From Candidatus Omnitrophota bacterium (GTDB lineage: Bacteria > Omnitrophota > Gorgyraeia > JAFGHF01), in contig CP070837.1 of NCBI GenBank assembly GCA_020341815.1, positions 1,172,575-1,236,574 of the forward strand: a stretch of DNA of 64,000 nucleotides, read 5' to 3'. Position 1 is the first letter of the stretch. The number at the start of each line of letters is the position of its first letter. Positions 3,001-27,000 of the stretch are shown here, in pieces. The notes under the pieces are model-generated. The model was not told the DNA's origin. It made no database searches and was given only the letters and a program-made list of their open reading frames with translations. A program made the translations under genes and the position numbers.

Positions 3001-6000
3001 GGAAGTAGAAAAGACCTTTGAACAGCTTCGAATTGAAGCATTTAAAGTTGTAAGCGGAGTAGATTACCCTAGATGGCTGCCTGTTATTGTACCAAGACAA
3101 ACATCAAAGGTGCCTTCTAAAGAACCTGAGCAGCAAACCCAAGGTTTGCCCAATTCCAACGCTGGTAAATCTCAAAAGGGCTCTTCTCCAGCTATTATAG
3201 CTGAAGACCAAGTCCTATACGGTCCATCTGTCTTAAAACTTGGCAATAAAGTAGCAGAAGAACCTATCCGTAAGGCTATACAGGATTGGACCAGCTGCTT
3301 GATTCGCGGCCCGGCAACAATCCAGAAATTAGCTGAACGGATTTCGTCTGTCTTTAATCAAGAACCCACAACTGCAGAACCCTCTGCAAATGTGGGTCTT
3401 TTTGTGTCTGATAATGGCATAAGCAACCGGGGCGGGAATTCTTCCGCCGCCTCGGAGTTTTCTGCCCCGGTTGATGCCATTAAACATTTCGGCGTAACAG
3501 AGATCTCCTCTACCAACTCCTCCTCCCCCGCCCTGCAGACCTTGAAGAAAAGCTTTATAATGAAGCTGACAACCGGACTTATCGCTCTATGCATCGGCAC
3601 CAGCTTAGGAACATTCCTTAGCAACTCTGCGGTAGCAGCAGCCAGCCGCACTAAGGAAACGACAGAGATGCATTCTGAGGTTTCAGGTTCCATCTTGGCT
3701 CTTCAGAATAGACTATGGAGAGTGGATACCTTAATAACATATCTGGAGAATAAGGAAGCTTATGATGAAGAAGAGATAAAAGGAATAAGAGACTATTACA
3801 TAAACGTATTATTAGAAGATGTATTAGAGAAGGATGAAGAAACCAAGGAATACTTTAAGAAAAAGGTAAGAGGCTTAACTTACGATATACAAGGGTGGAG
3901 ATTCTACAGCCCTACCTTACCACACGAGAAAAAGGTATCTCTGCAGAGAGAAGCCAGGGCATTCATAGAGTTTATAAATGAGTATTTTGAGGTCTCTCCG
4001 GAAAAGAGTGATGCCGCCAGGGTAGAAAAATTTATTGGAGAAAAAGACCCCGAACCCGGAAAGATAGAACAGATAGGGTTGCTGACGAAAATAAAAGCCT
4101 ACCGCGATAGTATTGCCTCAAGAATACCCGAACAGGAAGAAGACCAGCCGGAGAAGCCAGCGGCAGAACAGACAGAGCCGGTAAAACAAACAACAGAAGT
4201 TGAGCAGCAAGAGCAGCAGTCTGAGAAGACAGAAGAAAAGACCGAAACAGAGCCCACAGAAGGCAAGGCTGAAGAGCCAACATCCGAGCCCGTTAAAGAG
4301 AAGCCAGCCACTACCAAGAGCAGCAGGAAGGCGCCAACTTCCCAGAGACTATACGCCCGTCCCACATGGGAAGCCGGTGAAACTCCCGATACGGTTATTT
4401 ATAGACCTGGAAACTATAAAAAAGACGGCCCGGATAGTAACGCCAATGGCTACACGGACAACACCTTAGAGGATGCCGCGCGACAGGTAACGGAATCAGA
4501 AGGAGACGAGCCTACTGTGCATGGGGTTGGCAGAAGGGCGCTTAAGATAGCAGAAGAGAATAACATTTCCGATCCAAACCTTATTTATCCTAAACAAGGA
4601 ATCATTATTCAAACAACCCCTGAAGCAGTAGAGAAGCTTACAGGAAAAACAGCCGACTCTCAAGCCGATGATACAACAGAAGGTACCGAAAAAGATCAGG
4701 ATGAGACAGAAGAGCTGACAGAAGAAGAAATCAAAGAGACAGCTGCCAAATTTGGCAAACTGGTTCAAAATCTTAATCAGAATAATATAGACAACATAGA
4801 GATTGACCTTAATAGCCTCTCCCCCGAGCTTAAAAAAGCCTTATCCAAGGAAATTAAGGAATGGCAGAAAGCAATAGATGAAGCTAAGCAGAAGATCCAG
4901 CAGGAAAACACTACCAAAGAAATTAAAAGCTGGATAAAAACAGGCCTTAACCCGGACAACGCCAACTTAGGCGAGACCAAGAGAAACATTCTAAAAACAA
5001 TTAAGAACTCCAGGTTACCCAAAGATATTAAAGACAAACTCACAGAAGAAACAAACGCCCAGTATAAAGAAGCTTCCACGCTTCGGTTAGAAGGCAGGAT
5101 AAAACCTATCGTAATCACATTTTGTAAGCTTGCAGGGATAGCAGTAGCCTTGATTTTGGCAGTGATCGGCTTATTTAAGCTGGCTAGAGCGCGCTTTGGC
5201 AAGAAAAACTTTCCACCGTTAACTGCAAATGCACCCCAGGCCAAGAATGAACCGAAATTCCAACTTCCCGACCTGCAGGCAAAGAAGAAGCTTGCGCAGA
5301 AGGGTCTAATTTTAGGCTTTATAGCTATTCTGCTTGGTCTGCCGATAATGCTTGGAGTGCTACCTCCGATGGAAGTGTTTGGTGCAAATCTTGGCCTTCT
5401 CCTGACAGCGGCGGGCCTGACTGTGACTATGTTGACGATATGTATATCAAGACAGTCCAAACTCGGAACATTAAGCCTGGGCAAGAGCAAGAAGGAAAAA
5501 GCTCAGCCATCCGAAAGTAAAACATCCGAGAATAAGGATAAAGCCGATACAAAGAAGAAAGAAGCAAAGTCAAAAATTTCCAAAGTACAAACAAAGAAAA
5601 GCCGGAAGGCCAAAGTTCTGATTGCCGGCCTATCCGCAACAGGTATTGCGCTTACTATCTGGGCAATCGATGTAGCCAATAAGATAACTAATAAATTAGA
5701 TAATGTTGGTATATTGCTGGCAGCAGCTGGTCTGGCAATAATACTTAGCGGCCTGCTAATCCTTAAGCTTAAGAAGCTTAAGGCAAGACAGCCTAAAGTA
5801 ATAAGCTTAAACATAGAGCCAGGCAAAGGAAAGTCCAAAGACAAAATAGACGGCCAGTCATTGCAAGAGAAAAAAGCCTTATTGCTCAGCAAAGGGTTAA
5901 CTCAAGATTATGTGAATAGTTTAAAAGAGGATAAATTAGAAAAGATAATTAAGCAATATGAGCAATGGGAAGGCGCATTAAAGAATGTAATTCAACAATT

Positions 6001-9000
6001 GAAAGATTTAAATGCAGAGGATTATGATTTGACAGCTGTTATAGGACAATTAGAACAACTATTATCAGTTGTTGGGACATATTCTCAAGGGGATGTTGTA
6101 AAGACACTTATTAACATATTGAATTTTGTATTTTTCGATAAAGGAAAGAATGCCGCGGCCGATAAAGCATATATTATCCTTAAGGATTATATCGAAGACT
6201 TTGGTAAAGGGGAAGTTTTTGAGCCTCAAATAGGAATGCTTTTTGATAAGGCTGTATGGGGAAAAATGGAGTGTGTTTATGCCTCAGAATCGGCTAAACA
6301 AGGGAGAAAAGAGGGCAAGATTTCATTAATAGGAGAAGTTGTCAGCTTAGGCTTCTTGATTATGAGAGAGATTAGGAATGCAAAAGGAAAACTTATAAAA
6401 GTCAAGCAAGTTGCTATTGTTCCGGCAAAAGTCAAATGTGTATCTTCCGAAGAATTAAAGCAGCCCGAGAAAAAGGATAGCAAAGAAAAATCCGAATTTA
6501 AATTCACAGCTAATAATAAAGAAGACAATATCCCCTTCCCAGCTAAAAGAAAATCAGGGGAAGCCTCAGGAGATGCTCAAACAGACAAAACATCCGAGCC
6601 CGAGGAAGAGGAAAAATCCGATACATCAGAACCAGAGGAAAAGCTTCCAGATAAGGAAGGCAGCACAGATAAGCCAAACGAAGAAATAGAGAATAAGCCA
6701 TCCGAAGACAAAATAGAGAATGCTGAAGAAGAAAAGGGAACCTCAGAAGATCCTCAAACAGACAAAAAATCCGAGAATAAGGAAGAAAAGGGAACTGCCG
6801 GAACCGATACATCAAAATTAAAGATTTCCAAAGCAGATAGAACTGAAAAGGAATGGAATGAGCTTGCAAAGCGCAAGGGCCTTTCGATTAGTTTATTCGA
6901 TTCAAATGGAGATAGGCCCGAGGAAGAGAAAGAATCCGATACAGCAGAACCAGAGGAAGAGCTTTCAGGCAAGGGAGATAGTACAGATAAAGTCGATCAG
7001 CCAGAACAAAAAATAGAGAAAGAGCTTTCAGGCAAAGAAGGCAGTGAAGAAATAGCATCCGAAGGCGAAGAAGAGGATGCTAAAGAAGAAAAGAGAGCCT
7101 CGGAAGATCCTCAAGCAGACAAAAAAACCGAATTTAAATTCACAATTAATGAGATAAAACCCTTCTCCTTCCTACCTAAAGAAGAATCAGATAATAAGCC
7201 AGGTGAAGAGAAATCCGAAGAAGGGGACTCAAAAGAACAGCTCCAAGACAAAGAAGAAAAGCCATCAGCAGAAATAACTAAAGACTTGAAAGAACAAAAT
7301 GGCAGGAAAGATATTATAAAGCAAGGCAATAAAAAACGAGTAAAAAAGAAACAAAAGAAAACTTCTTCTAAAACTTGGAAGAAAATAATAATTATTCTAG
7401 CCCTTATCCCAGCAATAATTATAGGTTTTGTTCAATACATTGCCTTAGAAGCCCCAGCTTCAATCGTTAATCCTTTAAATAAAAGAATCGAAGTTGGGAT
7501 AGAAAAACCGAACTTACCTATGTCTAGGCGCTTTTTAACAGCGGTAGATGATAAGGAAGAAAATGACCCTCTCGATAATGATATAGAGGACCTTTTTGGC
7601 CAGGAAGAACAAAATCTGATAGTTCGGCCTTTATCCCGGGAATTAAATCCCAATAACCTTTTAGCCTTTACCGAATCGCAATTTAATAAATCTCATAGCC
7701 CGAAGGTTATACAGATTGGAAAGAAGATAAAGGTAGCAGGATTGCACGATATACCCGGGGGAGATTACTATGAGGCATTGGAATATGGATTTGAGATGGA
7801 CGGTAGATATGTATTATTTAATGGTGAAATTCACCGTATTGTAGGCGATGATATTTATAATGACGGTAGGCTTGTAGGTAGTATTAGCGAAGACTATCTT
7901 TCCGATGGAGAACTTAATAATACAGCAATTCCAGACATAGTCGGGCTAACTGACCTTGAGGGGTCGATATTAGAAAAATTAATAAAGGATGATAAGATTT
8001 CTATTGTTTTTGCAGTCGGCCGTGACGACAGCATATATTCTTCTATTGTTGATGACGATATGATTATTAGAGGTCCGAAACCGGACTTTGAAGATTATCA
8101 AGATATAGTTATAATCAATGGCAGGCCGATAGAAGTAAAAATAAGATTAGTTTTTTCCATAACGGCTTTCTTGGATAGTTTGAATAAATTTGAAGTTATA
8201 TATGTTTTCTCTCATTCCCGATGCGGCTTAGGATTCCATTTTTATAATGATAAACATCCTGTATATATGAATCGGGGCAGAAAAATAAATAGTCAACAAA
8301 AGGTAATCGGAATAAAAAGCAATAGTATATATCTGGAAAGCTATCTTAAGCATGGTATCATCTCAAAGGATAGAATCGTAGGAAAAACAGAGAACGGATA
8401 TACTCTAATTAGCGTAAACGATTCAGATTTAACTAAAGTTGTTCCTTACAAGGGCTATCAGCTTATAATAGCAGATTCCTGTAAAAGCAGGAAACACTTC
8501 TTAGATGATTTGAAACGTTTGAGAAAAGGCTTGCCCACCAGCTTCATTCTGAGCCAAGACGATAGTCAGGCCACGGGCAATTTTGATCAGGTTGTAGGAA
8601 TTATTTTTACAGGAGGAGACGTCGATACATTAGTAAACCAGATTAATTATAGAGAAGGCAAAGAGATATGGGATTATTATGAAATAGAAGAGACTATGGA
8701 TGTTAGTGATGGCAAGAGTGACCGGGGTAGGGCTTCTTCCGCCGCCTCGGAACCTGTCCCGGTTACTGCCATTTTCCCTAACTCCACTATCGAAGATACA
8801 TACGGCTCAGTGGTTGTGGTGAAAGGAGATTCAGTGCCGCTGAATGACCAGCCCAATAGAGATTTAGCCTCTTCACCTGCAACAGAGGCAGTTGCGGATA
8901 AGGTGCAACCGCAGGAAGAGATTCTGAGGGTTTCTGCTGAAGATAGAACAGAGTTTGATGCATTAAAGGCATATTACCGTGCTTTAGTTGAGGCAAGAGA

Positions 9001-12000
9001 ACAGGCTGAAACGGATGCAGGTGCCTGGGAGACGATAAGCGATATAGCATATAATATCTATTATAACCTGGTTGTCAAATGGAGAGATAATACGAATAAT
9101 AGAACCTTACATGTAGTCGGTAAAAGCTTAGATCATGGCTTCTTAAGAGAAATAGAATTGAGAAATAGAACATCAGGAGTAGTTAGCAAGTATGATGTTT
9201 ATACTCGTAGAGCTAAGGCTTTAAAGAATCCTGCTTCTGAAGAAGAGCTTAATTCACATCTGAAAGAGCTGCGGGATAACACAGACCAGCTTATAACGTC
9301 TATGGTTTTAGTAATTGACTATTTAAGCCAGGATTATCTGCCAGCAAAGAATCAAACCGCAGAGCCCACGGATAAAAATAAGCTATTAGGGATGTATGGT
9401 AAAAAGGACACAGGGCTTTTGTTAAACCTACCTAAGATAGAGGAATCTTTAATTGCAGCAAGGGCATCTTCACCCGGAGCTAATCAGGAAGATTCAATTA
9501 CAGAAGCTTTGGCAAATAACGATTTTGATCCAGAATATCTTAACACGCTGTCTTTGCAAGAAAAAGAAGATATTTTAGCCAGAATGCAGAAATTCACCGC
9601 TCCGTTAAATGATCTTATTACCGATTTAGAAAATGAAAAGAAACAGCCCGAAGGATTGCTTAAGCAGCTTAAAAAATTAATTAAGAATTTCAGTAGCCCT
9701 GCCTTTGTTGTCGTTGAGCCGTTATTCGATTCTGTTGGTTCCATACTTGTAATGAGGGTTTCCTCCTCTCCGGCAACAGTGTCTCATGTGGAAGAGAGCG
9801 GAGGACAAGATAGCAACATAAATCCTATTACAGATGAACTTGAGAAACACATAAGGAACATAGTGGAAAAGATTAGAAAGGGAGAGTTGCCAAATTTAGA
9901 GGTAAAAGTCTCTAGCGAAGAAAGCGGAGGGCGTTCCTCTTCTCCGGTTAAAGGCCAGGAAAGATTGACAACAATGTTGATTAACTGGACAAAGGCAATG
10001 ATTCTTAGCCTATTCATAAAGGCGAAGCTGCGCAAGCTATTGTTAGACAGAGAGGCTCAAGGCAAGTTAAACCTTAGAAGTTTAATAATTAAATGGGGGG
10101 CGGGGATCCGCTGGTACATAGACAGGCTGAAAAAATCCACTGCGGGACCAAGAGGCAAGACCGGAGTAATACTTGTAATAGACAAAGAAAGACCAGGCCG
10201 ATTAAAAGATTTTAACAAAGGGGATATATTTGCAGGACAACTGAGCCTGCCGGTAGTGGTATTTTGTGCGCAGGCCTATGCAGAATACCTTAAGAAGACA
10301 GGGCTGGGAGCGTTTGTAAGCGGGGATAACCGCTTTTATTCCAAAGAATATGCGGATATGTTCAGCCGCGTATTGATAGGAAACGGCATAACCGTATATA
10401 GAGATAAGTACTTGCAAACCACACCAACGCCGGTAATATCCTATATGGCATTTTATTTTGAAGATGTAGACACAGGAGTGAGTGTAACAGCCAGCCATAA
10501 CCCGCCGGACCAAAACGCAATAAAGTCAGCTAACCGGGATGGAGGGGTGGACACGGATGAAAAGTCAGAGCAAATAGCAAATATAGCGAATGATATGTAC
10601 GCCCATCCCGATGACTATGCATTATATATTGGGGATGCTCGAAAGGCCAAAGAAGAGGATGCCTTAGAGATTTATTATGATAACTATATTAAAAAAGTTT
10701 TTGGCACTAAGTTTGCCCAGACATTGTCTAAAGCCCATAGGCAAAAAGGAAGCGAGTTTATTATAGATGGCTTGGGAGGAGTGGCCGGACGAGCAGCCGC
10801 ATACTATTTGAATCGGCTGTTTAATGGTAATAGCTGGAAAGACATTGTCACAGTATTAAATGCGAAAGCAGACCCGACAATGTTAGGGATACACAGGCCA
10901 GACCCCTCAAACCCCAAGACATTGGAGTATTCAGGAGTATTAGAGACATTGGCAGGGAATCCGAGCATATTGATGTCCGTGACAGCAGATATGGATGCAG
11001 ACCGCACGGGGCCGGCAGTAATTATACCGGAAAAAGATGTAGTCAAGGCAATGACGTTCGGCTTATTCGTGACTGAGATGAATTTCGAAGGCAAAAAGGT
11101 GCACATAGTGCGCTTTACGCCGAACCAGATATTCACCCTGTTGGCATACGAGAGGATATTGCAGGCCTTTGAGAAGTTAATAGGGACCAGGGATGTAGAT
11201 GAGATACTGCAGGCTATAAAAGATAAGAGAGTAGACCCCTCCAAGATACATGTAGTGATGTCACTGCCCACAACGAGGCTGATGTATGCATTGTGCAGAT
11301 TGTTTGGGGTAACCCTGCATTATACGGCAGTAGGATTTAAGAATTGCGGCAAGGTAGCGAAAAAGATAGAAGATGAAGACCCCGAAGCAATAGTGATAAT
11401 ATTAGCCGAAGAGAGTGGAGGAGCGATAATCGGTCCGTTAGAGCGGGGTGAAAAAGGAGAAGGCATACATAAAGATAAAGATACATTGGTGCTTGCATTT
11501 GGATTATTTGAGACAGCAGCCCGCTTAGCCTTAGAAGATAGCAGTATGCTTGAGTTCTATATAGAAATGGCCAGCCGATTGGGAGGGCTGTTCTATTATG
11601 CGCGAGTAGATGCTTACTTGCCGACACAGGAAAAGGCCGAAGAGATTAAGGATCCCCGGATAATACAAGAGGCAGCAGAAGCAAAACAGAGAGCGATAGG
11701 CGCCTTTATGGAATTAGAGAATAGTAACGAAAAACTAATTAATACTTTTGGTAAGGAAGATCTCCAATATGAAGAGGAAGAATTTACGGTACCCAATACC
11801 TTAATATTTATAAAGGAGGAGAATGAGTGGGTGCTGTTAGAGCCTCGAGGCAGAAGGCTCAAGTTTAGCGATAAGACCTCCTTGGAGATATTCCACTTGA
11901 CCGAAGGTGCAGGCGGCGGCCCTGTAATTACACTTTATGATACCGAAGGAAGGCTGCTCTACTGGACATTAATCAGGCCTTCGGGGACAGAGTCATTAAT

Positions 12001-15000
12001 CAGAGTATATTTAGAGATATTCGAGCCCTTTGATAACCCGCAGCCAAGTCATCTATACAGTTATTATGCATTCCTGTTTGAGACATTGTATTTAAACGTA
12101 TATTGCCCGGAAGAAGACGGCCCAAGCTACTGGGACTTGCACGTTGATGATGTAGAACAGAGGTATTGTTCCTCCCCCGTAGCGAAAATCAAGGCGCTAA
12201 AGAAGAAAGGCCAGGAGGACGGTACGCAGAAGGTGAAAGTAAGCAGAAAAGTAACCAAAGACTCTAACCGAAAAGAAGAACCTTTGGAAGAATGGTATAA
12301 GGTTCTAGGTATATTAGGAGGTAATATTAAAAAGGGCAATAACAAGGTTTCCTCTCCGGCAGAAGCTAGAGAATACCATGAGAAAGCTGCAAAGCTTTTT
12401 AAAGAAAGAAAATTCGATGAGACCATAAAAGTCCTTACTAAGATTATTAAGCTTAATTCAAGCGATTCAATTGCTCATCACAATCGTGGAATAGCTCGCG
12501 AGAGAAAAGGCGATTTAAAGGGAGCGTTGGAAGACTTAAGAAAAGCCTGGAACATTAAAGCAACTGCGCTTAAGATGAAGAAATCCTCTTCTCCCGCAAA
12601 TGGAGAAAAACTTAATCCAACAGACATAAGGGCGGAACTCATAAATAGCACAGTGGTGTTCTTAACCAGCCGAAAATGGACAATGATGAGAAAGGGAGAT
12701 GAAGTAGTTATACGCAAATTGTCTGAGAAGCGCTTTGGAGAATTATATGCGCGTCATCCAAAAGGTATTCGAGACGCAGGCATATTCGTAAATTATGCTT
12801 GGCAAGATGAAGGACCGGGAGCGTTCAATATAGATATAGTAGAAACATTAGATCCTATAGCACTACTTTTGGCCTTTAAAGGAAGCCTTAAAGATGAGGC
12901 CGAAATCGAATTAGTAACTGCAAAGATTGAAAAAATTAAGGATGGCTTCAATAAGGTGAAGCTCTCCAGCCCGGCAGAAAATCGGTCTATGGAATTAATG
13001 ACTAACATTGTCTCTGTAGGCGCAGTGATTGTAATTGGGGCTAAGCCTCAATCAGTTTCCAGTCCTGTGTTTAAGATGTTTGCAAAAAGAGATGATAAAG
13101 ACATTGGAGCAGATGCTGTTAATAAGAAGACTTATAAGCAAACTGATGAAGGAAAGTTTAAAGTTGTAACTTTGCCTTTGGAACAAAAGAAGTGTGAAGG
13201 AGGAGGTTGTCCAGAAAACCATGGCGCACAGAATAGCGAAGTCGAGTTGCTTAAAAAGGCTATCGATACGCTGATAGACTTTAGGCTTGAGTTGCTACTT
13301 TCCGAGCCAAAAACAAAAACTGAATGTCGGCAGAAAATAGATGCAATGACGAGAGATTTAGAAGAGCAGTTTGGAAATCCCACAAAAGCTAAAGAGTTTG
13401 CAGAAAAAACAATTATGAAACAGGAAAGAGAGAGGCTTTTGCCTATAGCAGAGAAAAAGATATATTGGAAAATAAGAAATAGATTAATGGAGAAATTAGA
13501 TAAAAAGAACGGAACTATTGACAAAGATGATTGTTTAAACATATTACAAGGAATTGTTAATCAAAAAACAAAAATATTGGCTGAAAAGCAATTTAGAGGT
13601 GCACTTCTTCTGGGAGAAATAGGAACGGGAATCCAAGAATTAATAGGGCTTTTAGTTGTCGATGAAGCATTAAGGAGCGTATTCTTCAAGATGCTTCCGG
13701 AAGAAATCAAAAAGCAAGTTGAATTTGAAAAAGAACAAAAAGCACAACAGCCAGCAAATGGGCAGGGTTTAGGTGGGGTAGAGGTAAGAGATATGCTAAA
13801 AACGTTTGCAAAAAAATTGGAAGAGAACTTAGCGCAGAAATTTGACAAAAGATTAGGGCATCTGGAAGAAGAAGTGAAAAACGGAACCAATGACGTTGCG
13901 GAATTAAAACAAGAAGTGAAAAACGGAACCAATGACGTTGCGGAATTAAAACAAGAAGTGAAAAACGGAACCAATGACGTTGCGGAATTAAAACAAGAAG
14001 TAAGAAACGGCAAGCCGTATTGGGATGAGGGATCGGATAGGAAGCTTATTGATGATGAGATGAAGAAATTAAAAGAGGAGGACCCCGTCCGCTGGGCCGA
14101 CCCTCATAAACGGCAGGCAGAAGCAACTAAAAGACTTATAAAACAAGGAAAGCTCAGGCTTGAGAATTGTTTTGATAATACTATCCCCAATGATACATTA
14201 AGAAGAGAAGTAAAGCAAGCAATAAAAATGAAAAAAGAAGAGAAAGAAGACATAGGCGAAGAACTGACTTGGTATGATGTTGAGAAAATTTATAATGAAC
14301 TTTTATTAGAATTACTTATGGATGAGAAGATAGAAAAAGAAGATGCTAAAAAATTAGGGCCTTTGACGGCTTATGAACTTACTTTGGGAGAACTTGAAAA
14401 AACCATTCGTTTCCAGAAGAAAGATATGCCACATTTTGGAATTCTTTGTCCTACAAAAGATGGTGGAAATCATTTTGTTAATATTTTGGGAGTTAGAATA
14501 GATGAAAAGAGAAGGGTTTATATAACAATTTCAGAGTATAATACCGGTGACGATGAAACGTGTCGTATAAGGGAAATTGAACTCTCAGAATTTGCCAAAG
14601 AATTAGGAATGGATAAGTTTATTATAATTGCCAATAAGAAGGATAAAAGGATATTCAGGAAGGAACTTCGCGATGACGACAAAAAAGAGCTAATGAGACC
14701 CCATGGGCCTGGAACCAAGACCACCGGTCCCCAAGGCAGCAAAACAGGCAACGGAACAGGTGATGGAACAGGCGGTGGTAGTGGTAAAGGAACGTCTGGT
14801 CAGGGCAAAGGTGATGCCACCCCGCCTCCTTCAAACGGTTTCGGAACATCCGGAGCCGCAGCAGGCTTTACAGGTGCTGCTGCAGGTTCTTCGGATGCCG
14901 GGACGGATGCTGGCAACACAGGCGATGTTGACAATACAGGCGATGCGGGCAGCACAGGCCGTGATTTTCCAAAAGACGTTACTAATAGCAGTAAGCCAAT

Positions 15001-18000
15001 AAATACCATTCCATTCGATACCGATACCCATCAGGGAAGGGCCGATGCGGATAATAATAACCCAGGCGCAGAAGTAAATGGTAATAAGGGAACGTCAAAT
15101 ACAGAATTGGCAAAAGCTGTAGTTGCCAGCCCGGTTGAGCAGACTTTAGGTGGAAAAAGGGACGTAGAAACAGATAGATTTTTTGCTACTAGAGAAAAAT
15201 TTAGGGGTAGATCAGAAGGCTTATCTCCGCCTACTGCTTCAAATAGCACTTTAGAGCACAGAGCCAAATCCTCAATATCCGCCAGTCCCGCAAGATTAGT
15301 TTATCCCCTAAGGCCTCGCCATGAGGCAGATAATCTACAGTCCGCAGTTCACGGAACAAAAATAACCGCCCATATCCCCAATACGCACTACACAATATAC
15401 GATATTGCCTCCAGCCCGAGTATTATTGACCTTAATGAGGAAGTCCAAAAGTTCTTAAAAGAAGCCGTTAAAGATTTCATGGCTAAAGTAAGGGAAATTT
15501 TGGCTAAGAAAGAGGATATCCAATCCACAATTGATAAAATCAATGCACTCACAATAGAAGGAGAGTTCATTGATCAGATCTCTACAGAGTTATTAAGGAA
15601 ATCATTGGCTGATGAGTTAACAGATTTACTTAATGGACTGCAGTCATGCGGACTAAATATCCAGAGCGGAAAAATACCTCTTGAAAAATTACTTTCTAAT
15701 TTGGATGAATTTGCAAATGTAGAAAAACTATATATAGAAACCACAGGCTATATTAGTATACTTAATTCAGTTGCCATTTTAAGAAAGAGTCGTTCTTTTT
15801 CCAGTCCTGCCGAATGCAGCCCTGTTTTAACTCAGCAAGCTACTTTTTCACAGTTTTTGGCCAATCTGCTGAATAGAGAATCGGCTGATATTTCTCAAGC
15901 AATAAAGCGTTCGCTTTATAACTTCAGATGCAGATGCGAAAAATACATATTGCAAAGAGCGATAGATTGGTTTTTGAGTCTCAAGTATAAGCTATTATCT
16001 CTATTAGGAATTTTAGGAAATAAGAAAAAGCATTACGGAGATAGCGGGAAAGAAGCCGATAATGAAATAAATGCACTTGAAGCAAAAGGTATAGATCTCA
16101 GAAACCCGCGGGCTCCTTCAATGAAGCGTTCGCTTTATAACTTCAGATGCAGATGCGAAAAATATATTCTGCAAAGAACGATAGATTGGCTTTTAAGCCT
16201 CAAGCACAAGATACTATCTTTATTGGCAAATTTAGGAAATAAAGAAAAATATTATGGAGACAGCAGCAGAGAGCAGACCGACAAGAAAGTAAATATACTC
16301 AAAATAAAAGGCATAATAAAAAGAGTTTTCGGAGCACCGCGCGCTCCTTCCGATCCGCAGAAGCTCAATAATACTAATAATCTTGGCACCATAGGTGCAA
16401 ACGCTAGCGGTCTGCCTGTTTTGCCAAACAGCACCTCTATGCCCTTTACTGATCCATTTGAAGGCAGAGAACCGGCGAATATTCCTCCAATAGCAGGAGC
16501 TTCGGCCAATATAGAATATAGAAGGAATGAACAGAAATTAGTAATAGTTAGTAGCCCTGCAACAGCCGAAGGCCACCATAACGGTAAAATGAGAGGATGG
16601 CGGGTCTATAGGGAGGGTATCTTAGAATTAAATATAAATATACGTAAAGCAAGAGGTATAGGTACAAGTCTCGGAGGTCCGCAGGCTCCTCCTTATAGCT
16701 CTCCTATCTCAGTAAACCAGAGAGAGAATAAGGAGGTGTCTTATGGAAAGAGTACAGCGTTTGGAATTACGGGAATTCGAGAGAAAGATGCGGAATATAG
16801 AAGAAGAATGGATGGCCCTGGAACTTCAACGTCGGCGCAAAGCCAGGAAGGAGAAGGAAAACATTATCCAGGAAGAGGACCGTTAGAAACATTACCACCG
16901 ACAGAAGAAAAGGGCAATAATAATCCTAATGGCCGCATGGCCCGGGGCTCAAGCGGAAAGAGTCCGGCTGCTATAGATGATGCTCTGTGCATACAAGCTT
17001 TAACTAAGCTTGCCTCTATATTAGAAGCTATCCTCAATGCTGTTATGCAGGTGCGGTATATTGTATACCGCGGACCTCCGCAAGCTATCTCTACCTATTC
17101 CCCTACCTACTACCTACTACCTACTACCTACTTATTAATTAGCCCCATAGCTACAACTTCATTAGAAGAAGTTGCGGTTATGGGTTTTGTTATTTCCGGT
17201 TATTCCTCCCCAATAATCGTCGCCGCAGTAGTTGCGGTGCGTTTATATACATTATTCAATAATCTATTGCAAATGGTGGCGCTGACAGTAGCAAGCCTCA
17301 TTGTGAGGCTTACTTCTATCACCGCCGCCTCGGTGGGAGAACCTGTGGGCGCCGCCATTGCAATTAAACCAGTAGTGAAAGGAGATGGGTTACAATGTCA
17401 GGAGCCGAAGTCAGGAGTATCAAGTTTGATCACATCGTGGATTCGCCAGATTACAGGTTTGTATGCGTTACTATTGGCGGCAGGACACGAAATCTGCGAA
17501 TCTATAAAGACGGGATGGTTGAATCTTATGAGCACGGACGCTTTATCCAGCTTCCTAGCGAACTGGCAAAAGATATTCGTGCCACTCTCAGCCGTACGCC
17601 GAACATCCCTACCTTCTCACTCAAGAACGGAAAAGGCCTTAGCGAATAAGTTACTCGCTGAGGCCTTCTCTGCCTCCTCCCCGGCAGATGGTGAAGATAA
17701 ACCTAAAGTGAATCTTCCAAAAGAAGTGCTTGAATATTATGAGAGCCTTTCTGAACCAACAGAAGCAGCTTTAATCTCAGCTTGGAAAAACCGGGGAGGT
17801 AAGTTCGTACAAAGTAAAGACGTACATAAAGCTCTTACCGAAAGCAGCATGAGACCGAAAATAACAGAACCCCCACTTAAGAAACAAGAAGATGAGAAGC
17901 AAGAAGATGAGAAACAAGAAGAGGGGGTAATAGAAAAAATAAAAAAAGAGCTCATAATAAGCATAAGATGTTTTGCTATAGAAAGGATAGAAGTAGAAGA

Positions 18001-21000
18001 CCTTCTTAAAGATAAAGAAAAACAGCTCAAGAAAATAGGGGTTCTAAAGCGTTTATTAATAATGTTGCGTACTGATATAGGCAAAGAAATAAAACTACAA
18101 AAAAATGAGACTATCAAAAATATATTAGAAACTATAGGGGATTATATACAAGTTATATTAGATAATGAATTTAATTTAATAAAAGAAGGATTAGAACAAG
18201 CGGGAATAATAAAAGCTGGATTGCGGCTTGAAATGGGGACAAAAGATGAACAAACCAAGAAGAAAAAAGCAAAGCAAGAATTAAAAGCAATAGCGCTTAA
18301 TATAGCAGAGCAAAAAGCAAATTTAGTAACAAAAAATATACCGTTGATAGGGCAAGCGCTAATAGAGCTAGAGCAGGCCATAAAAGGACAAAACTCTACC
18401 TCCAGCCCTGCGCATTATAATATACCGCTTGTGCAGCATTCCTCTAGAAGAGAGCCTGGGAAAGTATCAACCACACTCACTAAGCAACAGCTTAGAAAAA
18501 TAAAAGAATTGAGAAAGACGGCATCCCTCGACAAGCAAAAAAAGATTCAACGATTGATGACTAAGCATTGCAATAAAGGTGACACAACAGACGCGAAAAA
18601 ATTTATTACACAGATGAAAATCACAATATCCAAACCGGATATCACCTCCAGCCCCGCACAGAAAAAGCCCGAAGAGCAAAAGATAGATATAGAACGCATT
18701 ATAGAATTAGTTAAAGAAGTAAGGCTAGGAGAATGCTTGGAGCATTCGGCAATATTAATTGGCGTATTGAGAAGATTAGGGGAAAACGCCCGGCTTGTAG
18801 GCGGTTATGAATCCTCCGAAGCTAATCTTCCCGACCACTATTATGTTCTTAGGGAAAATGGGGACAGGATAGATATCTGGCCAAGAGAGACAGAAGAAGA
18901 AAACTTTGATGAGTTTTTCGCTGAGGCACAGTTACGACTCGCTTTAGATAATCCAAAAATAGATGATGTGATTAACAAAGTCTTAAAGAAGCTCTCCAGC
19001 CCCATCGATAAAACAATAGATAGTCAAGTTATTGCATTTTTAGGCGCCCATTTATGGAACAATATTATGGCTTTGCTCAAAGCCCGGCCGAAATTCCTTG
19101 AGGATTTCTGCTTTAGTTATCGTTGTCATGAGGGCTGGGTGCCAGGGAAAAAAGGCGAAAATATCTGCGGCGCTATTAGGATGGTAACTATAAATTCTGC
19201 TGCTTATCTCCCTATCAATAAAGAAGCCAGCATTGTTCGACCTTCCTCCAGCCCGGTTAAGCAGAAACTTGGAGCTATTGTCTTGATTATTATGGGGATT
19301 ATGGTTGGTTTTCCGGGATTGCTTTTTGCTCAAGGATTAGCTCCTGCTGCATTAACCGCATCAATCTTTGGCAAGGCTATTATGGGGACAATAGGGGTTG
19401 TCTTGGCAGGAAAGCTCCTCAAGAACTTATATGTAGCGCGAAAGTATAAAAAATATACATCCAGGATAAATAAGCTTTTGAGGATAAGCGAAGAAAGCCC
19501 AGAGCGATTTGCCGATGAAATCGAATCGCCCGAATACAGAGATATCTATGAGCAGGTTATGCGTTATTCCGAAGATAACGCAGAACAGAATGAGACGTTA
19601 GCGCAACTACAGGAGTCTTATTTTGAAGCCAGGGAGAAGACCGTTGAGGAAATAGAGGAATTGCTGATGGCTTTTACTTTTCCTCAGCCTTCTTTAGAAA
19701 TGTGGCGGTTGAGTCTAAAAATTGAAATTATGCCAGGTTTTTCTAATAAGAAAGAGGGAAATACACGGGATGAGCTTTTAGAAAAACTTTCTGGCTTTGC
19801 CAATAGATATCCGGATATTTTCCTAAGTGTATTAGAGGAGAAGTTCGGCATAGAACTCCTAAGAGGTAATTTTAAATCAGGCGATTATATGCAAAGATTG
19901 CAAGAGCTTTATTTCAATATTAGAAACAGGGCTTATGTTTCTGCAAAGAATAAGCCTGTGCGTATTGCCTGGCATGTTTGGGATTTTTGCATCTCCTGGA
20001 CGTTGCGTTCCGGATTGGCTTTAGCGAAAGGAATTAGTTCCCGGATTCAAAAACTATCTGACGGAAAGCCAACAATAATTATAAAAACGCTCATAAAAGG
20101 ATTAGGCGATATAATTCAAAGAGCTAAAAATCTCTTTGCCGAAGCGCAGGCAGAAGAAGGTTATTGGAAAAAAGCAGAACTTGTCGTTAAGCTTAGTTTT
20201 TGTATTTCTTCTCTTGCTGCTGTTGCCTGGTATAACTGGGGCTGGAAAGGCGCCTTAATCACTGCAGTTGGCTTGCCTATAGGTTTCCCTGCAGCACTAA
20301 TAATGGCTATATTTGTTAGCGTTAAGATAATTCGATGGGCATGCAATCATCCAAAGCTGGCAACCACTGGAGTACTTTTGGTTATGGTGGGGGGACTTGG
20401 TTTATTCGGGGAGGCATTTGCAACGCATCCTCAGGCTTATCTGCCCCATCCGGATGGTCCGCAGGCATCCAGGAGTAGAGCGGGCAATATAGGAGACAGG
20501 ATTGCGCTTAGGGGGCCGGATGAGGCTGGCGAGGTTGTCCCCAGAGTTGTTGAGCCGACTGTAAAAGGCCAAGATCCGGAACGCTCCGGCCGTTCTCCCC
20601 CAGATAACACAACTACTCATTCAGATATATCACTTAACCCTAGTCAAACCCCTGCCGAGGAAACGTCTTGGCTCAGCAAAATCTTGGATGTTTTGGTGCC
20701 TGATGTTGAGGCAACTGAGCCTGAGGTGAATAAAGGGGCAGAGAAAACAAGCTTCTTTAAAGATTTCTTTAATAAGAAATACGATGTTATAAAATTGTTT
20801 AGGAATATATATATTGGCGATTGGCATCATTTTGGGATTTTTAGACTTGTGGGAAAGCAAGAGTACGTTAAAGATGGTAAGAAGGCTTATATTATAATGC
20901 TGCGAAAGATAATAGGGAAGATGCCGCCAATAGGCGGGTTCCATATATCCGGTAATACTTCAGAAGCGATTATTTTCGTCAATCAGAAACCAGATAAAGA

Positions 21001-24000
21001 CTGTGCTTGCGAAATGAAAGCTATGGCAAGCGGAGATCGCTTGAAGATACTCTTGGAAATAATGGATGATTTTCATCGCGAGGCATTAACGGGTAAAGGT
21101 ACATATTGTAAATTTACTTCAGAAGGCGAAATTCACTGGACAGAAATAGATGAATTTACTAAGGTCGATCCTATTTTGATGAATAATTTAAAAGCTCTAG
21201 CGCTAGATCTACAAGGTAAGCCTTTCGCCAAGCGTGAACTTATATATACAATAGAGGGAATGATTAAATCAACAGCTGATGATTACGAATTTACAAAACC
21301 ATTGGCCGGAAAGAGCGTCGAAGAATTGATCAAGTTAATAGAAGGAAATAAAAGTAAGCATGAGTTTAGACATATAATAGACGCATGGATTAGTGATTCT
21401 GAATTGTATCTTACAGAAAGAATAGAAGAATTGAGAAACTCTTTTGGCAATAGGTCAGATGAAATTATAAAAAGAGTTATAGTAGAATTGTCCGGTTTTT
21501 TGAGCACACTGATGGATCCTTCATATACGCGTTATCAATTCTGTCAAACATTCTTAGGAGCAATGCATTGCAGGAACATAAGTCAGCGCAATTCTAATAA
21601 TGGCTCTCATTATAGCGTCAGCCCCAATGATGCCGCTCATTTTATCATCATCTTGGCAATGATGAATTGGGCTAAAGGAGAAAAAGATATTACCGGTAGA
21701 TATTTCAACGTGAATGATTGGAGAGAGACATTACGTCCTTTAAGTGATGAGCAAATAATACAATACGCTAAAGAGATTTATGAGTATATATTCCAAAGAG
21801 AAATGCTCATGCCCGAGCTTGTAACAACATATGAAGCTAAAGGTATGTGCTTCATCACCTCACTGGGTAGTGCAGAGGCGGCTGAAGCGCAGACACCGGA
21901 TGAAACAAAGCCACCTATTAAAGAATGGATGATAGAACTATATCGAGAAAAACTCCAAGAGTTAAGAGACAAATTTAATAAGAAAAAGATTTCAAAAGAT
22001 GAATTTATTTCCAGACAATTAGGTATAATTTTAAAACTAGCTAATGAAATAAGATTTGAACGAAAGGTTGCGCAGAAACAGCAGGATTGGTGCTTTAGAA
22101 CAAAGTTAGATTTGCGGATATTAGGAGAGCAAATAGGATTTAGAGTTTTTAAATATTTAATCATTTTAGATAAGAATTCTGATGGGACATTGTCAGTTTT
22201 CCCGATAGATAAAATATTCGATTTAGTAGAAGAATTTACGAAAACAGAAATTGCTATATACAGATCTTACGAAAAAGCGAAACTCGCTAACTACAGATCT
22301 TACGAAAAAGCGAAACTTGCTAACTACAGATCTTACGAAAGAGCGAAACTTGCTAACTACAGATCTTACGAAAAAGCAAAGTTGGAGATTTATAAGGAAA
22401 TAGAATACAGTCAAATTTATAAAGACAGAATAGCTACTATAGAAATAGTTTATAGAAAAAAAATAAAAGCTGTAGAAGTTACTTATAGAGAAGGAATAAA
22501 GGCTGCAGAGGCCACTTATAGAAAAGGAATAAAAGATGCAATTGCAGCTTATGACAATGCAAAAGAGACAGTGCTTCAAGAAATTACTAATAAAGCAAAG
22601 CAGTTTATTATTAAAGCTAAACAGTCAAATAACGAGGCAATGCTGATTCAAAGAGGACAACCCTGGGGAATTGGCCTAAGCGGATTGGTATTATTAACTA
22701 TATTATTTATGCCAATGATGGCCTTTGGAGGAGAAACTGAGGTATCCTCATCACCAATTAAGGCTAAATTCAACATGGCGGAGGTTGTCAAATGTGCAAC
22801 TCTGCTAAAAACAACCAAGGCTAATTTTATAAGAGTATTAGCAGTTGGGTTGGGGTTAAGTCAGATTGGATGGGTTTGGATTAAGTCTGAAGAAAAATCG
22901 ATAATACAATTCTTTTTGAAACCCCTTTTAGGGGGATTGGGAATAACGATAGTCTTTTTAGTAGGCTATTATCTGGCAACAATTTATTTTTCTAATCAAT
23001 GTGAGAACTATCTTGAAAAAGCAAATACTTTTATTATGTCAAAACAGCATCAGAAGGCAATTTTGGAATGTAACTACGTTATTAAATTAAAAAGATTTAT
23101 TCATTCAAATCTTGAGGGATTAGCATATAGCCTTAGAGGAAGAGCATATTTTGAATTGGGGCAGTATCAAGAGGCTTTGCTTGATTACGATACAGCTTTA
23201 AGACTTATTGTTGATGTTCCCGAGCTTGCTTGTTTTGTTCCATCTCTCTATGTTAGTAAAGGTAGCACACTTTTTCATTTAGGAAAATTGCAAGAAGCTT
23301 TAGATAGTTGCGAGCATGCAATTGAATTTGATCCCAATTTGGGCCCGGCATATGTAAATAGAGGAACAGTAAAGGCTTCTTTGGGAAATATTGAAGAAGC
23401 AAAGAGAGATTTTGAAAAGGCAGTAAGACTAGATTCTAAATTACAGCAGGAAGTAGAAAAAACAAAGAATTATTTAAGAGGTAAGGGTATAGATATTTCT
23501 TCTTCACCGGTTAAGATAACCGACTCAATGAGTACCTATGCGGTGAGTCAGATTTTGATGGGATATAGGCTTGTTGAAATAAATCCGCAGAACATTCAAT
23601 ACATTAGCAATATCACCTCTTCCGGTTTAATCCGCGGGTCGGATACTGCGGAAGTAGATAGCATTAAAACCTCCCAAATATCCAACCTTCCGTATCCTGC
23701 CCGCAAATATTCTGTAATTCCAGTAAATGAAGTAATAAAGGAAAAGAGTTGTTCTTCTCCGCTTACACAAGATAGTAAAAATAGCGGTAAATTTGCTCTT
23801 TGGCGCGAGTCTATTGAGAATTATATTGAGAGCTACTTAGATTTTCACCCCACCTTATCAAAATATTTAGGCAAAGTTATTCCTTTTATAGAAGTAGCGC
23901 TTTTGGCAACATTAGTCGGGTTAATGGGAGTAGCTTTATTAGGAGGAGCTTATTTATCCTGGATAGTTACAACAGCCCTGCTGGGAGGTAAAGCAGTAGC

Positions 24001-27000
24001 CATTGTAGGAAGTATATGGATGAGCGCAAGCTTAGCATTAGTATCATTTGGAGCAGGATCATTAATCTTTTATAAGACAAAATGGAAGTGGTGGATGCTT
24101 GGTATGTTAGCGGGTTTGGTTGTGGGAAGCGTAGGGGCGTTATGCACACCGTATATAATCGCGTCTGTAACCACACCAAGCATAGGCTTAATTGTGGAAA
24201 CCATAGTAGGAACAATAGGCTTAGCAATATGTTGCAGGACAGAGCGGGGTAAGAAAATTTCTCAGTGCTTGGAGCCTACTATAGATTCCATATCTAAAAC
24301 TGAAGAGATAAGAAAAATAATAAAAAAGATAACGAAAAATAGTACGATAGACCAGATTAAAAATGATTTAGAAAAGGGTAAAATTGGTGTGCAAGAAGCA
24401 TGTTATAGAGTTTTAGCCTTAGCAGAATCAGCGCTTAAAAAAACAGATCCTGATAAAAAATTTAAAAAATTCAATACTCTTCAAGTAGAAGCCTTTGATT
24501 TGTTAATTACTGAGATTGCAAAAGCCAAAAGTGATTCTAAAAAGATTTCCCGAGAAATGATTGAGATGGTGATGTCTACCGGCAAAACTGAAGCTGCAGG
24601 GGTGTTTGGTTGTTTAGCCTGGACGCTGAAAGATAAGTTTGGTTACGAGAAGGTAATACTGACCAGTTGGCAGAAGACAGCAGTAAAACAGGATTACGAT
24701 AGATTAAATACTTTCTTTAAGGAAATTGGACTTTCTTGCGGCTTCCATAACGAAGAGCATTTATCAGAAGATGAATTTGAGAAATATTATAATAAAGATA
24801 TTCTTTTTGTTGATTATCAACTTCTGATGAATGATTGGGCACAGAGTAGAGCGTCAAACAGAGGGAGAAAGAATCAATCGGTCTTAATTAAACCGGGAGA
24901 AAAGAAAGAAGCAGGAACAGGAGAAAAGCCAGAGAAAGAACTTATTATTGCTCCAGAAAAGATTGCCCTTGTAGGTTTAGAAGCCGATTTCTACTTCCTT
25001 GACGACTTGTTTACACCCTTAGTAATATTGGGACAGCCTAAAGAGATTAACGAAAAAGACTTGGCCCAGTTTCGGGAAAATTATAAAAAGATAATAAAAG
25101 CTGTTTCTATGAGTAAAGAACTTGAAAAGCATAAGGACTTCAAAATATATGAATCGGAAACATATAAAGAAGTTGAAGGAGATTATCGCAATGGAGATAA
25201 TCAACTACGACATACTACGCATTTTGTTGAACTTACTGAGGAAGGCAAAAGGAAAGTAGGAAAACAATACATTGTCTTAACAGAGACATATCTTAAAGCC
25301 TATTTCCTTTATAACGGCAAGGATTACACTATTAGAAATGGATTGATTAGACTCTACAATGAACCAGCAGGTGTTATCTTTGAAAACAGACAGCTTCAAG
25401 ACCAAACTATTTGGATTATGCTTCATATAAAGGCAGGATTATTACCCGAAAACGAAGGAGATGTATTTGAGGACAGGTATTTAAAAATTATTTCCCATTT
25501 GTTTGCATTCCCTATCGTCTATACTAATTTTTATTTATTCCAGAAGGAATTAGGCCTTATTTGGGCATTGAGTGGAACTTCTGATAAAGAGGCATTTGAG
25601 AATTTAGGATTTAATGTTGTTAAAGTGGATAGCAGAGACTTTGAAGAGCAAAGAAGTAAAAAAGTTGAACAAAGAGACTTTCTCTCGAAGAATTTTGCTG
25701 CCAGCATAAAGACTATTTTAGATAAGTTGCAAAAGCTGATAGAGAAGCTTAAAAACCAATCCACAATTATCTTTGTTGACGACCCCGACGATGTTAAAAA
25801 GTTAGCTGAAAGAATTAAAACAGAATTTAAATGGCCAAAGGATAAAGTAGAGGCATGGTTACCTGATGATGAGATTGATGAAGCCAAAAGACACAAGGTA
25901 GGTTTGCCTGGACAAATAACTATTATCACGGCTAATTTGACGCGTAATGCAAACTTTAAGTTGCAAGAAGGGTCAACAAAATTCAATTACCTTATTTCAG
26001 GAGGTCGTAAAAATCCTCGTTGGATGAGACAGCTTCTCTGGCGAGTGGGAAGACTCGTAGAGATGAAATATGATGAAAATGGCAAAGAAACATATGTCTT
26101 TAATGAAGCAGATGTGTTTGTGTTTTATCATCTGGAGCAGGAGCTATTCTCACAATACCCGAGAATAAAGGAGAATCTCTCGGCTCTGTTAGATGGGAAA
26201 GACTGCATATCTGTAAATATAGATAGCCTCAGCAATAATGAAAGAAAAGCTGCTAGGTATATTCAAGAAGCTTTCCGTTTTACAAATAGTGACTCTATAA
26301 AGAATAGCAAGATGCAAGGTAAAATAGAAGAACAGATAGGTGCAGTAAGCGAAGCAATTGCAAGGCAGATGAAAGAAATAACTAATGCTCAAGAGAGAAA
26401 GGATCTTCAATCAGCCTATACAGTTTTTCTAGAGACTATTGAGGAACAGAGAGGTCTTATTTCCTTTATAAAAGGAGATATAGATAGGCTTGCTGCCCAA
26501 TGGTCTAAGAAAGTAAAAGAGATATTTGATACTACAATAGGAGCAGTTCTTGCAGGAGAGGGTTTAGTTATAGAAAGTGATAATAGAGAAGAGGAAGAAG
26601 AGGTTGATTCATCAGAAAGAGGAAAGATAGGAAATGTGTGGCGGGAAGTTATCGATAAATTAAGTCGTAGAAATAGAGAAGGTTCTGGGCTTGGTCCTGC
26701 ATTGGCAACTATAACTATGACAACAGTTATAGGTGTGGGTATAGTAGCGCAGGCGGCTGCCGCGCAGCATACTATGACGGCTCTTAAAGAAAGACACTCC
26801 ATGTTATTAAATCGGATAACAGAGGACCTGCGCAGTATAGGAATTCTCCAGAGAGAAAAGGAGGAGGCCAATGACAAGCGCGCGGAAGAGATAGATGAAG
26901 AGATAAAGGGATTATATAAGCGATTAGGGGTAATTTCGGAACAAGCGCAGGAAGTAGAGCACAAAATTAAAGTAAGAGAGGCTTATAGCTCTGCTAAGAA

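Follow-up and report, generated by a model that had tools for sequence, protein, structure and literature searches.

A Ser-Ser-Pro seam motif at the module joints of a giant Omnitrophota gene and its possible role in cleavage

We analysed a stretch of 64,000 nucleotides (nt) from a Candidatus Omnitrophota bacterium (GenBank assembly GCA_020341815.1, contig CP070837.1, positions 1,172,575 to 1,236,574 of the forward strand; this whole stretch is called the window below). A single giant reading frame runs through it, and the tripeptide Ser-Ser-Pro (SSP), mostly followed by Ala, Val or Ile, recurs in this frame at the borders of gene-sized modules. S-S-P-[A/V/I] is, very probably, a peptide-level seam motif at the joints of modules that were fused in one frame. 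A fuller statement, in which the seam is also recognised by an enzyme and cut, is tentative, and we put it at somewhat less than an even chance.

The SSP motif in one giant reading frame

Frame 2 of the forward strand is open, without a single stop, over nt 2–64000 (21,333 codons), and the other frames contain 700–1,900 stops each. As frame 2 is free of stops and exits the window at both ends, the window is an internal fragment of a giant gene; the encoded protein has at least 21,333 amino acids (aa), and a program-made list of open reading frames missed the frame because it exits the window at both ends. All results on SSP given here rest on this one gene.

SSP occurs 35 times in the 21,333 aa of frame 2, as compared to 2.8 expected by composition. 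When the sequence was shuffled 2,000 times with the composition kept within 300-aa blocks, 3.3 ± 1.8 SSPs were found, with a maximum of 13. Between nt 9692 and 24000 alone there are 21 SSPs in 4,769 aa (0.8 expected). The original prediction, made from the letters of the window, had listed short SSP-containing peptides as recurrent punctuation and suggested a comparison with composition-shuffled sequence; this comparison confirms the enrichment, and frame 2 contains all 22 example peptides, each no more than about 5 nt from its stated position. Every site that it listed between 9692 and 24000 is real, although two others in this interval were overlooked (YSSPISV at 16697 and YSSPIIV at 17204).

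The motif is strict. SSP is the top-ranked tripeptide by enrichment, the top four tetrapeptides are SSSP, SSPA, SSPV and SSPI (39–70 times enriched), ASSP is enriched 24 times, and the residue after SSP is A, V or I in 29 of the 35 sites. Variants that differ in one residue are at background (observed/expected: xSP 39/43, SxP 45/43, SSx 83/76), and STP is found once and TSP not at all in frame 2. Chance or composition as the source of the motif is ruled out by the composition-based expectation, the block shuffles and these one-off variants. Internal duplication is ruled out as well: self-BLAST of the giant protein found few internal repeats (the modules are mostly unrelated to one another), and these repeats explain no sites except the pair flanking the NUDIX module described below.

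The sites are unevenly spread, with 27 within nt 2627–23753, eight within nt 55181–63509 and none in the 10,476 aa between (P = 1e-10 for all 35 sites missing the middle 10,200 aa under an even spread). Both SSP-bearing parts carry enzyme modules along with membrane segments. Upstream of the sites there is an excess of Lys and Arg, and their flanks show no enrichment of disorder-promoting residues.

SSP sites at the borders of modules

The segment between the SSPs at 9938 and 12170 holds a module related to phosphoglucomutases and phosphomannomutases (PGM/PMM; Table 1). About 40 free-standing PGM-like proteins of 706–736 aa, found by protein search in Margulisiibacteriota, Armatimonadota, Omnitrophica and other groups, are 37–42% identical to it; their C-termini map to aa 4056–4061, i.e. 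the SSP at 12170, and their N-termini map 15–25 aa downstream of the SSP at 9938. Since the homologue termini match the SSP positions, the segment represents one complete former protein. In metagenome and genome scans, a 1,213-aa protein from a metagenome-assembled genome (MAG) of Omnitrophica (Hainich groundwater) was 54% identical to aa 3327–4058 of the window frame and matched nothing else in the window, and this match region is again the segment between the same two SSPs. We note that members of this PGM-like family are about 710 aa long (canonical PGM/PMM proteins have 450–480 aa) and 23–29% identical to canonical ones, and that they are widespread in uncultured phyla and mostly unnamed.

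SSP is not a general trait of Omnitrophota or of PGM-like proteins, which is ruled out by control counts: ordinary proteins encoded beside the PGM-like gene of the Omnitrophica relative contain no SSP in 6,875 aa, and 47 PGM-like homologues contain eight in 34,654 aa (no enrichment). Among the sequences examined, the strict S-S-P form is found in this gene only. The sequence NSPIIEVSSSAIS, just before the PGM-like module of the relative, resembles SSPIIERVSSSIL at nt 61250 of the window; Ser-rich punctuation is thus common to this gene and its Omnitrophica relative. The protein of the relative (L001 = L003, 8822–12460) begins with a signal-peptide-like segment, MNFTKTKNFKKIASLFVAVIFLCNTILPNACFA/AEAF, which raises the question of whether a cytoplasmic-type PGM-like enzyme is exported, and its neighbour genes look, from their sequences alone, like housekeeping genes (guaB-, guaA- and dnaE-like).

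Other borders point the same way. A TPR unit (aa 4118–4194) fits to the residue between the SSPs at aa 4116 and 4195, with the site SSPAEAREY lining up with the start of a TPR helix, and two more TPR blocks stop 7 and 17 aa ahead of an SSP. The NUDIX/IPP-isomerase-like module has SSSPxTSSSPVTSLE on each side, and several SSP sites abut or enclose hydrophobic segments. Classical signal-peptide-like segments (basic residues, a hydrophobic core and then AFA/AE or FAQG) are found directly 3' of SSP seams at 59996–60090 and 19247–19350, deep in the giant frame.

A 116-aa module with a Cys-His-Asp triad, which has an SSP on either side, may be a minimal transglutaminase/papain-like enzyme. Two small free-standing homologues that align with it (125 and 200 aa, encoded on ENA metagenome contigs of <1 kb) have the same invariant Cys, His and Asp. 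The structure predicted for the module is a compact alpha/beta domain (pLDDT 80, pTM 0.76); low confidence is confined to residues 1–7, which take in the leading SSP, and the final helix stops at the trailing one.

Within seven recognised domains of the SSP-bearing parts, no SSP was found (4.5 expected, P = 0.011). In an AlphaFold single-sequence model of nt 17600–19300, all five SSP sites lie in coil between helices; this model is of low confidence (pLDDT 42) and was used only for the coil positions of the sites. The proposal that the motif marks module boundaries is thus upheld wherever it could be checked: at the PGM-like module, the TPR unit, the Cys-His-Asp module and the NUDIX module, and by the absence of SSP inside the seven domains.

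Constraint on the peptide and copying of junctions

The DNA at the sites is much less uniform than the peptide. The original prediction had placed a tcc-agc-cc codon core at module boundaries throughout the protein, which does not hold as a general feature: the core TCCAGCCC is present at 6 of the 35 SSP sites, all within 12965–19247. The first Ser is encoded by five of the six possible codons and the second by all six; the TCN and AGY families both contribute, and each of the four Pro codons occurs. The coding frame has 35 matches to (TCN/AGY)(TCN/AGY)CC, and the two remaining frames have 12 and 2. Outside the nine-base core, sites share 7.5 of 24 nt as compared to 6.5 of 24 for random in-frame pairs, so that apart from one duplicated junction the flanks are near random. 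The rarity of TCCAGCCC, the mixed codons and the dissimilar flanking DNA together indicate that the constraint is mainly on the peptide.

It is quite improbable, in our judgement, that the sites are DNA recombination scars, with TCC-AGC-CCN as the core of cassette insertion, the peptide incidental and the codon variants due to drift. This explanation draws on an excess of TCC as the first Ser codon (16 of 35 sites vs 17% background, p = 7e-5), on a pyrimidine at the wobble position preceding the motif (33 of 35 sites), on the codon class shared by neighbouring sites (17 of 26 adjacent pairs have the same combination of Ser-codon families vs 9.1 expected, p = 3e-4) and on direct repeats around two modules. 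The scarcity of the core, the flanking DNA and the frame-specific excess all argue against it. Moreover, a change between TCN and AGY takes two substitutions via a non-Ser codon, yet 29 of the 70 Ser codons lie outside the family of the core, and the intermediates TSP, STP and SCP are not enriched (CSP: 2 vs 0.3 expected).

The two modules with direct repeats are the NUDIX module, enclosed by a 60-nt repeat with 90% identity between its copies, and the 1,783-aa segment between the SSPs at 3521 and 8870, enclosed by a repeat of about 70 nt. The latter element (encoding SD..S.RG..SSAASE..PV.AI) may be part of a longer junction cassette. The shared codon classes and the direct repeats indicate that at least some seams were made by copying an existing junction at module insertion. 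Because the modules are mostly unrelated, this is insertion of different modules and not duplication of one. Junction copying is evident at two modules and seems to extend to the rest. The earlier idea, growth of the gene by repeated insertion or duplication of modules around a conserved junction, therefore stands in part: it holds for insertion with a copied junction, on the codon families shared by 17 of 26 adjacent pairs and the two repeat-flanked modules, and fails for duplication of a single module.

Are the seams cut?

Gene-sized modules (PGM-like, TPR, Cys-His-Asp, NUDIX and membrane-segment cassettes) have been fused into one frame with SSP at the joints, and new seams seem to be created when insertion of a module beside an existing seam copies the junction. 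We propose that a sequence-specific enzyme would read SSP, most likely an endoprotease that would cut the giant precursor at or beside it and so free the modules in the manner of a polyprotein; a candidate for this role is the Cys-His-Asp module embedded in the chain. A reader enzyme is suggested because SSP is exact across codons, does not have Thr, Gly or Ala in place of Ser, mostly precedes A, V or I and occurs only in the modular part of the protein. Since the motif stands at the termini of protein-equivalent units, endoproteolysis would be the most natural reading.

The strictness of the motif also argues against a purely passive hinge, the main rival, which we regard as a real if doubtful possibility. 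A passive joint would break or cap a helix, the Ser serving as N-cap and the Pro as first helix residue, and the protein would remain uncut; the uniformity would come from copied junctions. The location of the sites between domains and at the ends of hydrophobic segments, the five of five sites in coil in the low-confidence model, SSPAEAREY at the start of a TPR helix and the tandem Ser-rich runs are all consistent with such a joint. So are the Ser runs without Pro at the same module borders in the Omnitrophica relative, and the clustering of codon classes and the flanking direct repeats, which point to copying. Linkers, however, normally exchange S, T, G and A and are longer and of low complexity, whereas here only the exact SSP is enriched, in flanks without an excess of disorder-promoting residues. 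The middle stretch of about 10,000 aa must contain many domains and uses no SSP, and both Ser codon families occur at both positions, so that simple copying cannot explain the identity of the peptide. A, V or I after Pro is also atypical as a helix-start residue, which counts against the passive joint.

Modification of the seams, by O-glycosylation or phosphorylation (proline-directed kinase) of a Ser in S-S-P that would protect or regulate the joints, is in our view unlikely. Glycosylation of linkers is common at inter-domain positions, which counts in its favour, as do the need for Ser with no tolerance of Thr, the small or hydrophobic neighbours, the enrichment of ASSP and the presence of sugar-nucleotide-related modules (PGM-like and NUDIX) in the same protein. 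Against it, Pfam and NCBIfam turned up no domain of a glycosyltransferase, oligosaccharyltransferase or kinase in the window, and the upstream Lys and Arg and the cytoplasmic type of the flanking enzymes speak against periplasmic O-glycosylation. In general bacterial O-glycosylation (PglL type), the modified Ser is flanked by Ala or Pro in low-complexity linkers. The SSP sites are similar in the required Ser, the adjacent small residues and Pro and the inter-domain position; they differ in a much stricter sequence, and no oligosaccharyltransferase accompanies them in the window.

A translational role, through internal initiation or through 2A-like skipping of a peptide bond at S-S-P, appears highly improbable. 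It would fit the placement of the sites at the termini of protein-equivalent modules, and the codon bias at the first Ser could point to an effect at the level of translation. However, a Shine-Dalgarno sequence with a start codon is not enriched near the sites (6 vs 4.4 ± 2.0), and the site sequences are unlike the 2A consensus, which is D(V/I)ExNPG/P. Moreover, 2A skipping is not known to take place on bacterial ribosomes, which also counts against the 2A variant. Promoter-like and terminator-like sites are not enriched at the seams either.

Several observations weigh against the proposal of seams that are cut. Independent domain limits were available for only four or five seams, as homologues of most modules could not be detected. 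The Ser runs of the Omnitrophica relative number only three (VSSSAIS about 10 aa ahead of the module, TSSSL where it ends and VSSSSSSV some 30 aa further on), none of them with Pro, and SSP is absent at the borders of other natural PGM-like fusions (with a receiver domain or uncharacterised extensions). Some sites lie 6 or 13 aa apart in the Ser-rich run SSSPIVSSSILPISSSPATSSSPVTS and look more like a linker than like cut sites, and cutting at all SSPs would give some fragments of 6–60 aa. Pfam and NCBIfam identified no bona fide protease domain in the window; a scan for protease motifs gave two HExxH (nt 959 and 21359), a single loose match to a relaxed pattern for serine proteases (GTSGA, nt 14843) and no strict GDSGG, without a supporting domain match. 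The Cys-His-Asp module scores 18.7 bits against PF01841, under the 23-bit cut-off, and Foldseek with its model gave no significant match, the nearest structures being Cys-His-Asp (arylamine) N-acyltransferases. We consider the most far-reaching form of the proposal rather doubtful: the giant gene would encode a true bacterial polyprotein, and cutting at S-S-P/[A/V/I], possibly by its own Cys-His-Asp domain, would yield about thirty separate products, namely enzymes, TPR adaptors and membrane pieces.

Comparison with known systems

The gene looks like the known giant multi-enzyme proteins of Omnitrophota in all features that could be compared. These have been described as 'Archaeovorin' (West-Roberts et al. 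2023, bioRxiv 10.1101/2023.11.21.568195) and as a 'multi-enzyme metabolic cluster' (Nielsen & Lui 2026, bioRxiv 10.64898/2026.06.07.730766). The window shares with them a frame of >21,000 codons, numerous membrane segments, a divergent SecA_DEAD domain beside such segments, and a content of methyltransferase, PGM/PMM, NUDIX, TPR, peptidoglycan-binding and glycoside-hydrolase-like domains (the NUDIX and glycoside-hydrolase matches are under cut-off); the nearest relative of one of its modules (54% identity) comes from an Omnitrophica MAG. Proteins count as giant from 10,000 aa upwards (West-Roberts et al.: >30,000 aa), and the window frame lies above 10,000 aa; Omnitrophota giant genes are known up to 85,000–147,000 codons. 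Published sets of Omnitrophota proteins with 10,000 aa or more comprise 46 members (West-Roberts et al.) and 916 members (Nielsen & Lui). West-Roberts et al. (bioRxiv 10.1101/2023.11.21.568195) suspected that giant proteins are cleaved, and stated that information on cleavage points is lacking and that this prevents both structure prediction and functional dissection. A text search of that paper (10.1101/2023.11.21.568195) and of Nielsen & Lui (10.64898/2026.06.07.730766) found no mention of a junction motif, a linker or a polyprotein.

No close relative of this gene turned up in the collections that were searched. A first genome scan and a viral-contig scan gave nothing, and a metagenome scan and a second genome scan gave the single Omnitrophica relative, for the PGM-like module only. 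In protein searches (1.8–5.8 billion proteins), nt 18002–26001 gave TPR matches only, the SecA-like region (nt 24152–25801) gave no match, and nt 15302–18901 gave two weak matches, each of them to the Cys-His-Asp module. Three further modules had no match in sequence searches of the PDB.

Viral polyproteins carry short protease sites at their junctions, e.g. the Q/G sites of picornavirus 3C and the sites of potyvirus NIa. The window is similar to them in having one long frame of protein-equivalent units, a strict motif of 3–5 residues that stands exactly at unit borders and is absent inside folds, and possibly an embedded protease. It differs in being a cellular bacterial gene, in having some tandem sites 6–13 aa apart and in that no established protease family was found; its frame is several times longer than any known RNA-virus polyprotein.

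Interdomain linkers rich in Ser, Pro and Thr are known from cellulases and scaffoldins (PT linkers). The SSP sites resemble these in having Ser and Pro at domain borders, and the run SSSPIVSSSILPISSSPATSSSPVTS near nt 63450 is linker-like. Unlike such linkers, most sites consist of a lone tripeptide amid ordinary sequence, Ser is never exchanged for Thr, and the conservation is positional and not compositional. An extended low-complexity linker with interchangeable S, T, G, P and A is seen only in the run at nt 63452–63517.

Domains, repeats and sites in the window

Domain searches with Pfam and NCBIfam found a SAM-dependent methyltransferase domain above cut-off at about nt 1390–1860, PGM/PMM domains I–III at nt 10238–11522 (PGM_PMM_I above cut-off), TPR blocks at nt 12356–12585, 23009–23480 and 61823–62318, a SecA_DEAD-like domain (PF07517) at nt 24257–25147 (28.8 bits vs a 24.6 cut-off), which directly follows five membrane-like segments, and a peptidoglycan-binding domain at nt 29291–29416. 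Weak matches include a transglutaminase core at nt 18665–18830 and, under cut-off, a NUDIX/IPP-isomerase-like match at nt 62606–62890 and a glycoside-hydrolase match near nt 38650. A crude hydropathy scan on the Kyte-Doolittle scale found 52 hydrophobic 19-residue membrane-like segments, clustered at nt 5100–7400, 17200–26700 and 54600–61300, with almost none between about 26700 and 54600.

The coding strand is purine-rich, with positive GC and AT skew along nearly the entire window. Repeats include three perfect to near-perfect 42-nt tandem units at nt 13866–14010 that encode AELKQEVKNGTNDV, two sets of 33-nt tandem repeats at nt 22241–22539 (11-aa units, e.g. KAKLANYRSYE; just 5' of a membrane segment and the SSP at 22748), and a 73-aa unit present twice at nt 15900–16372 (64% identical in protein, 84% in DNA) between the SSPs at 15800 and 16550. 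An acidic region rich in Glu, Asp and Lys at nt 6486–7160 holds several interleaved direct repeats with spacings of 177, 318, 357 and 636 nt. Within the SSP-free stretch, about four tandem copies of a unit of about 110 aa (26–40% identical, 336-nt period) are found at nt 42440–43870, probably a repeated extracellular domain.

Table 1. Positions of the SSP sites, modules and repeats of the giant frame in the window (nt)
Feature	Position	Strand	Remark
Uninterrupted giant-gene fragment, frame 2	2..64000	+	exits window at both ends
SSP TPSSPID	2627..2635	+	frame-2 scan
SSP YGSSPSI	2828..2836	+	frame-2 scan
SSP KGSSPAI	3182..3190	+	frame-2 scan
~70-nt element, copy 1 (..SD..S.RG..SSAASE..PV.AI)	3412..3481	+	40–110 nt upstream of SSP 3521
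SSP NSSSPAL	3521..3529	+	just 5' of membrane-like segment; upstream seam of 1,783-aa segment
~70-nt element, copy 2	8707..8773	+	about 100–160 nt upstream of SSP 8870
SSP LASSPAT	8870..8878	+	downstream seam of 1,783-aa segment
SSP RASSPGA	9467..9475	+	frame-2 scan
SSP NFSSPAF	9692..9700	+	with 9764 site encloses 24-aa hydrophobic segment
SSP VSSSPAT	9764..9772	+	frame-2 scan
SSP RSSSPVK	9938..9946	+	upstream seam of PGM-like module
PGM/PMM-like module	9980..12175	+	equals complete free-standing 706–736-aa protein; 54% identical to part of 1,213-aa Omnitrophica protein
SSP YCSSPVA	12170..12178	+	C-terminal end point of free-standing PGM-like homologues
SSP KVSSPAE	12350..12358	+	first residues of TPR unit
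SSP KSSSPAN	12587..12595	+	directly 3' of TPR unit aa 4118–4194
SSP KLSSPAE, core TCCAGCCC	12965..12973	+	with 13058 site encloses 31-aa hydrophobic segment
SSP SVSSPVF	13058..13066	+	frame-2 scan
SSP IASSPSI, core TCCAGCCC	15410..15418	+	frame-2 scan
SSP SFSSPAE	15800..15808	+	frame-2 scan
SSP IVSSPAT	16550..16558	+	frame-2 scan
SSP PYSSPIS	16697..16705	+	frame-2 scan
SSP GYSSPII	17204..17212	+	within hydrophobic stretch
SSP SASSPAD	17675..17683	+	frame-2 scan
SSP STSSPAH, core TCCAGCCC	18401..18409	+	frame-2 scan
SSP ITSSPAQ, core TCCAGCCC	18647..18655	+	upstream seam of Cys-His-Asp module
Cys-His-Asp transglutaminase/papain-like module, 116 aa	18656..18994	+	SSPs 18647 and 18995 on either side; candidate protease
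SSP KLSSPID, core TCCAGCCC	18995..19003	+	directly after last helix of Cys-His-Asp module
SSP PSSSPVK, core TCCAGCCC	19247..19255	+	followed by signal-peptide-like membrane segment
SSP VSSSPIK	22748..22756	+	just 3' of membrane-like segment
SSP ISSSPVK	23501..23509	+	7 aa past TPR block
SSP SCSSPLT	23753..23761	+	final site ahead of SSP-free stretch
SSP-free stretch, 10,476 aa	23762..55180	+	holds membrane-like cluster, SecA_DEAD-like, peptidoglycan-binding, weak glycoside-hydrolase match; ~9,300 aa nearly without membrane-like segments
SSP KASSPLL	55181..55189	+	frame-2 scan
SSP KFSSPII	59996..60004	+	start of signal-peptide-like membrane segment
SSP NFSSPIIERVSSSIL	61250..61258	+	resembles NSPIIEVSSSAIS of the relative
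60-nt direct repeat, upstream copy SSSPTTSSSPVTSLE	62366..62425	+	SSPs 62369 and 62387; seam between TPR block and NUDIX module
NUDIX/IPP-isomerase-like module, 355 aa	62387..63451	+	two repeat copies on either side
SSP YSSSPIV	63452..63460	+	opens Ser-rich run SSSPIVSSSILPISSSPATSSSPVTS
60-nt direct repeat, downstream copy	63488..63547	+	SSPs 63491 and 63509; 90% identical to upstream copy

Implications for giant proteins of Omnitrophota

SSP provides the first concrete candidate positions for a cut or a hinge in such a giant bacterial protein, and so a means to test whether the giant proteins of Omnitrophota act as one chain or as cut pieces. Termini or modifications at SSP can be looked for in existing or new proteomes, structures can be predicted for the pieces between seams, and other giant genes can be scanned for seam motifs of their own. 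At least part of this giant gene is a chain of formerly independent genes, with seams that can be copied on module insertion. If it does encode a polyprotein, a single unit of transcription and translation would replace an operon, and SSP would be the first defined processing code for the giant proteins of Omnitrophota.

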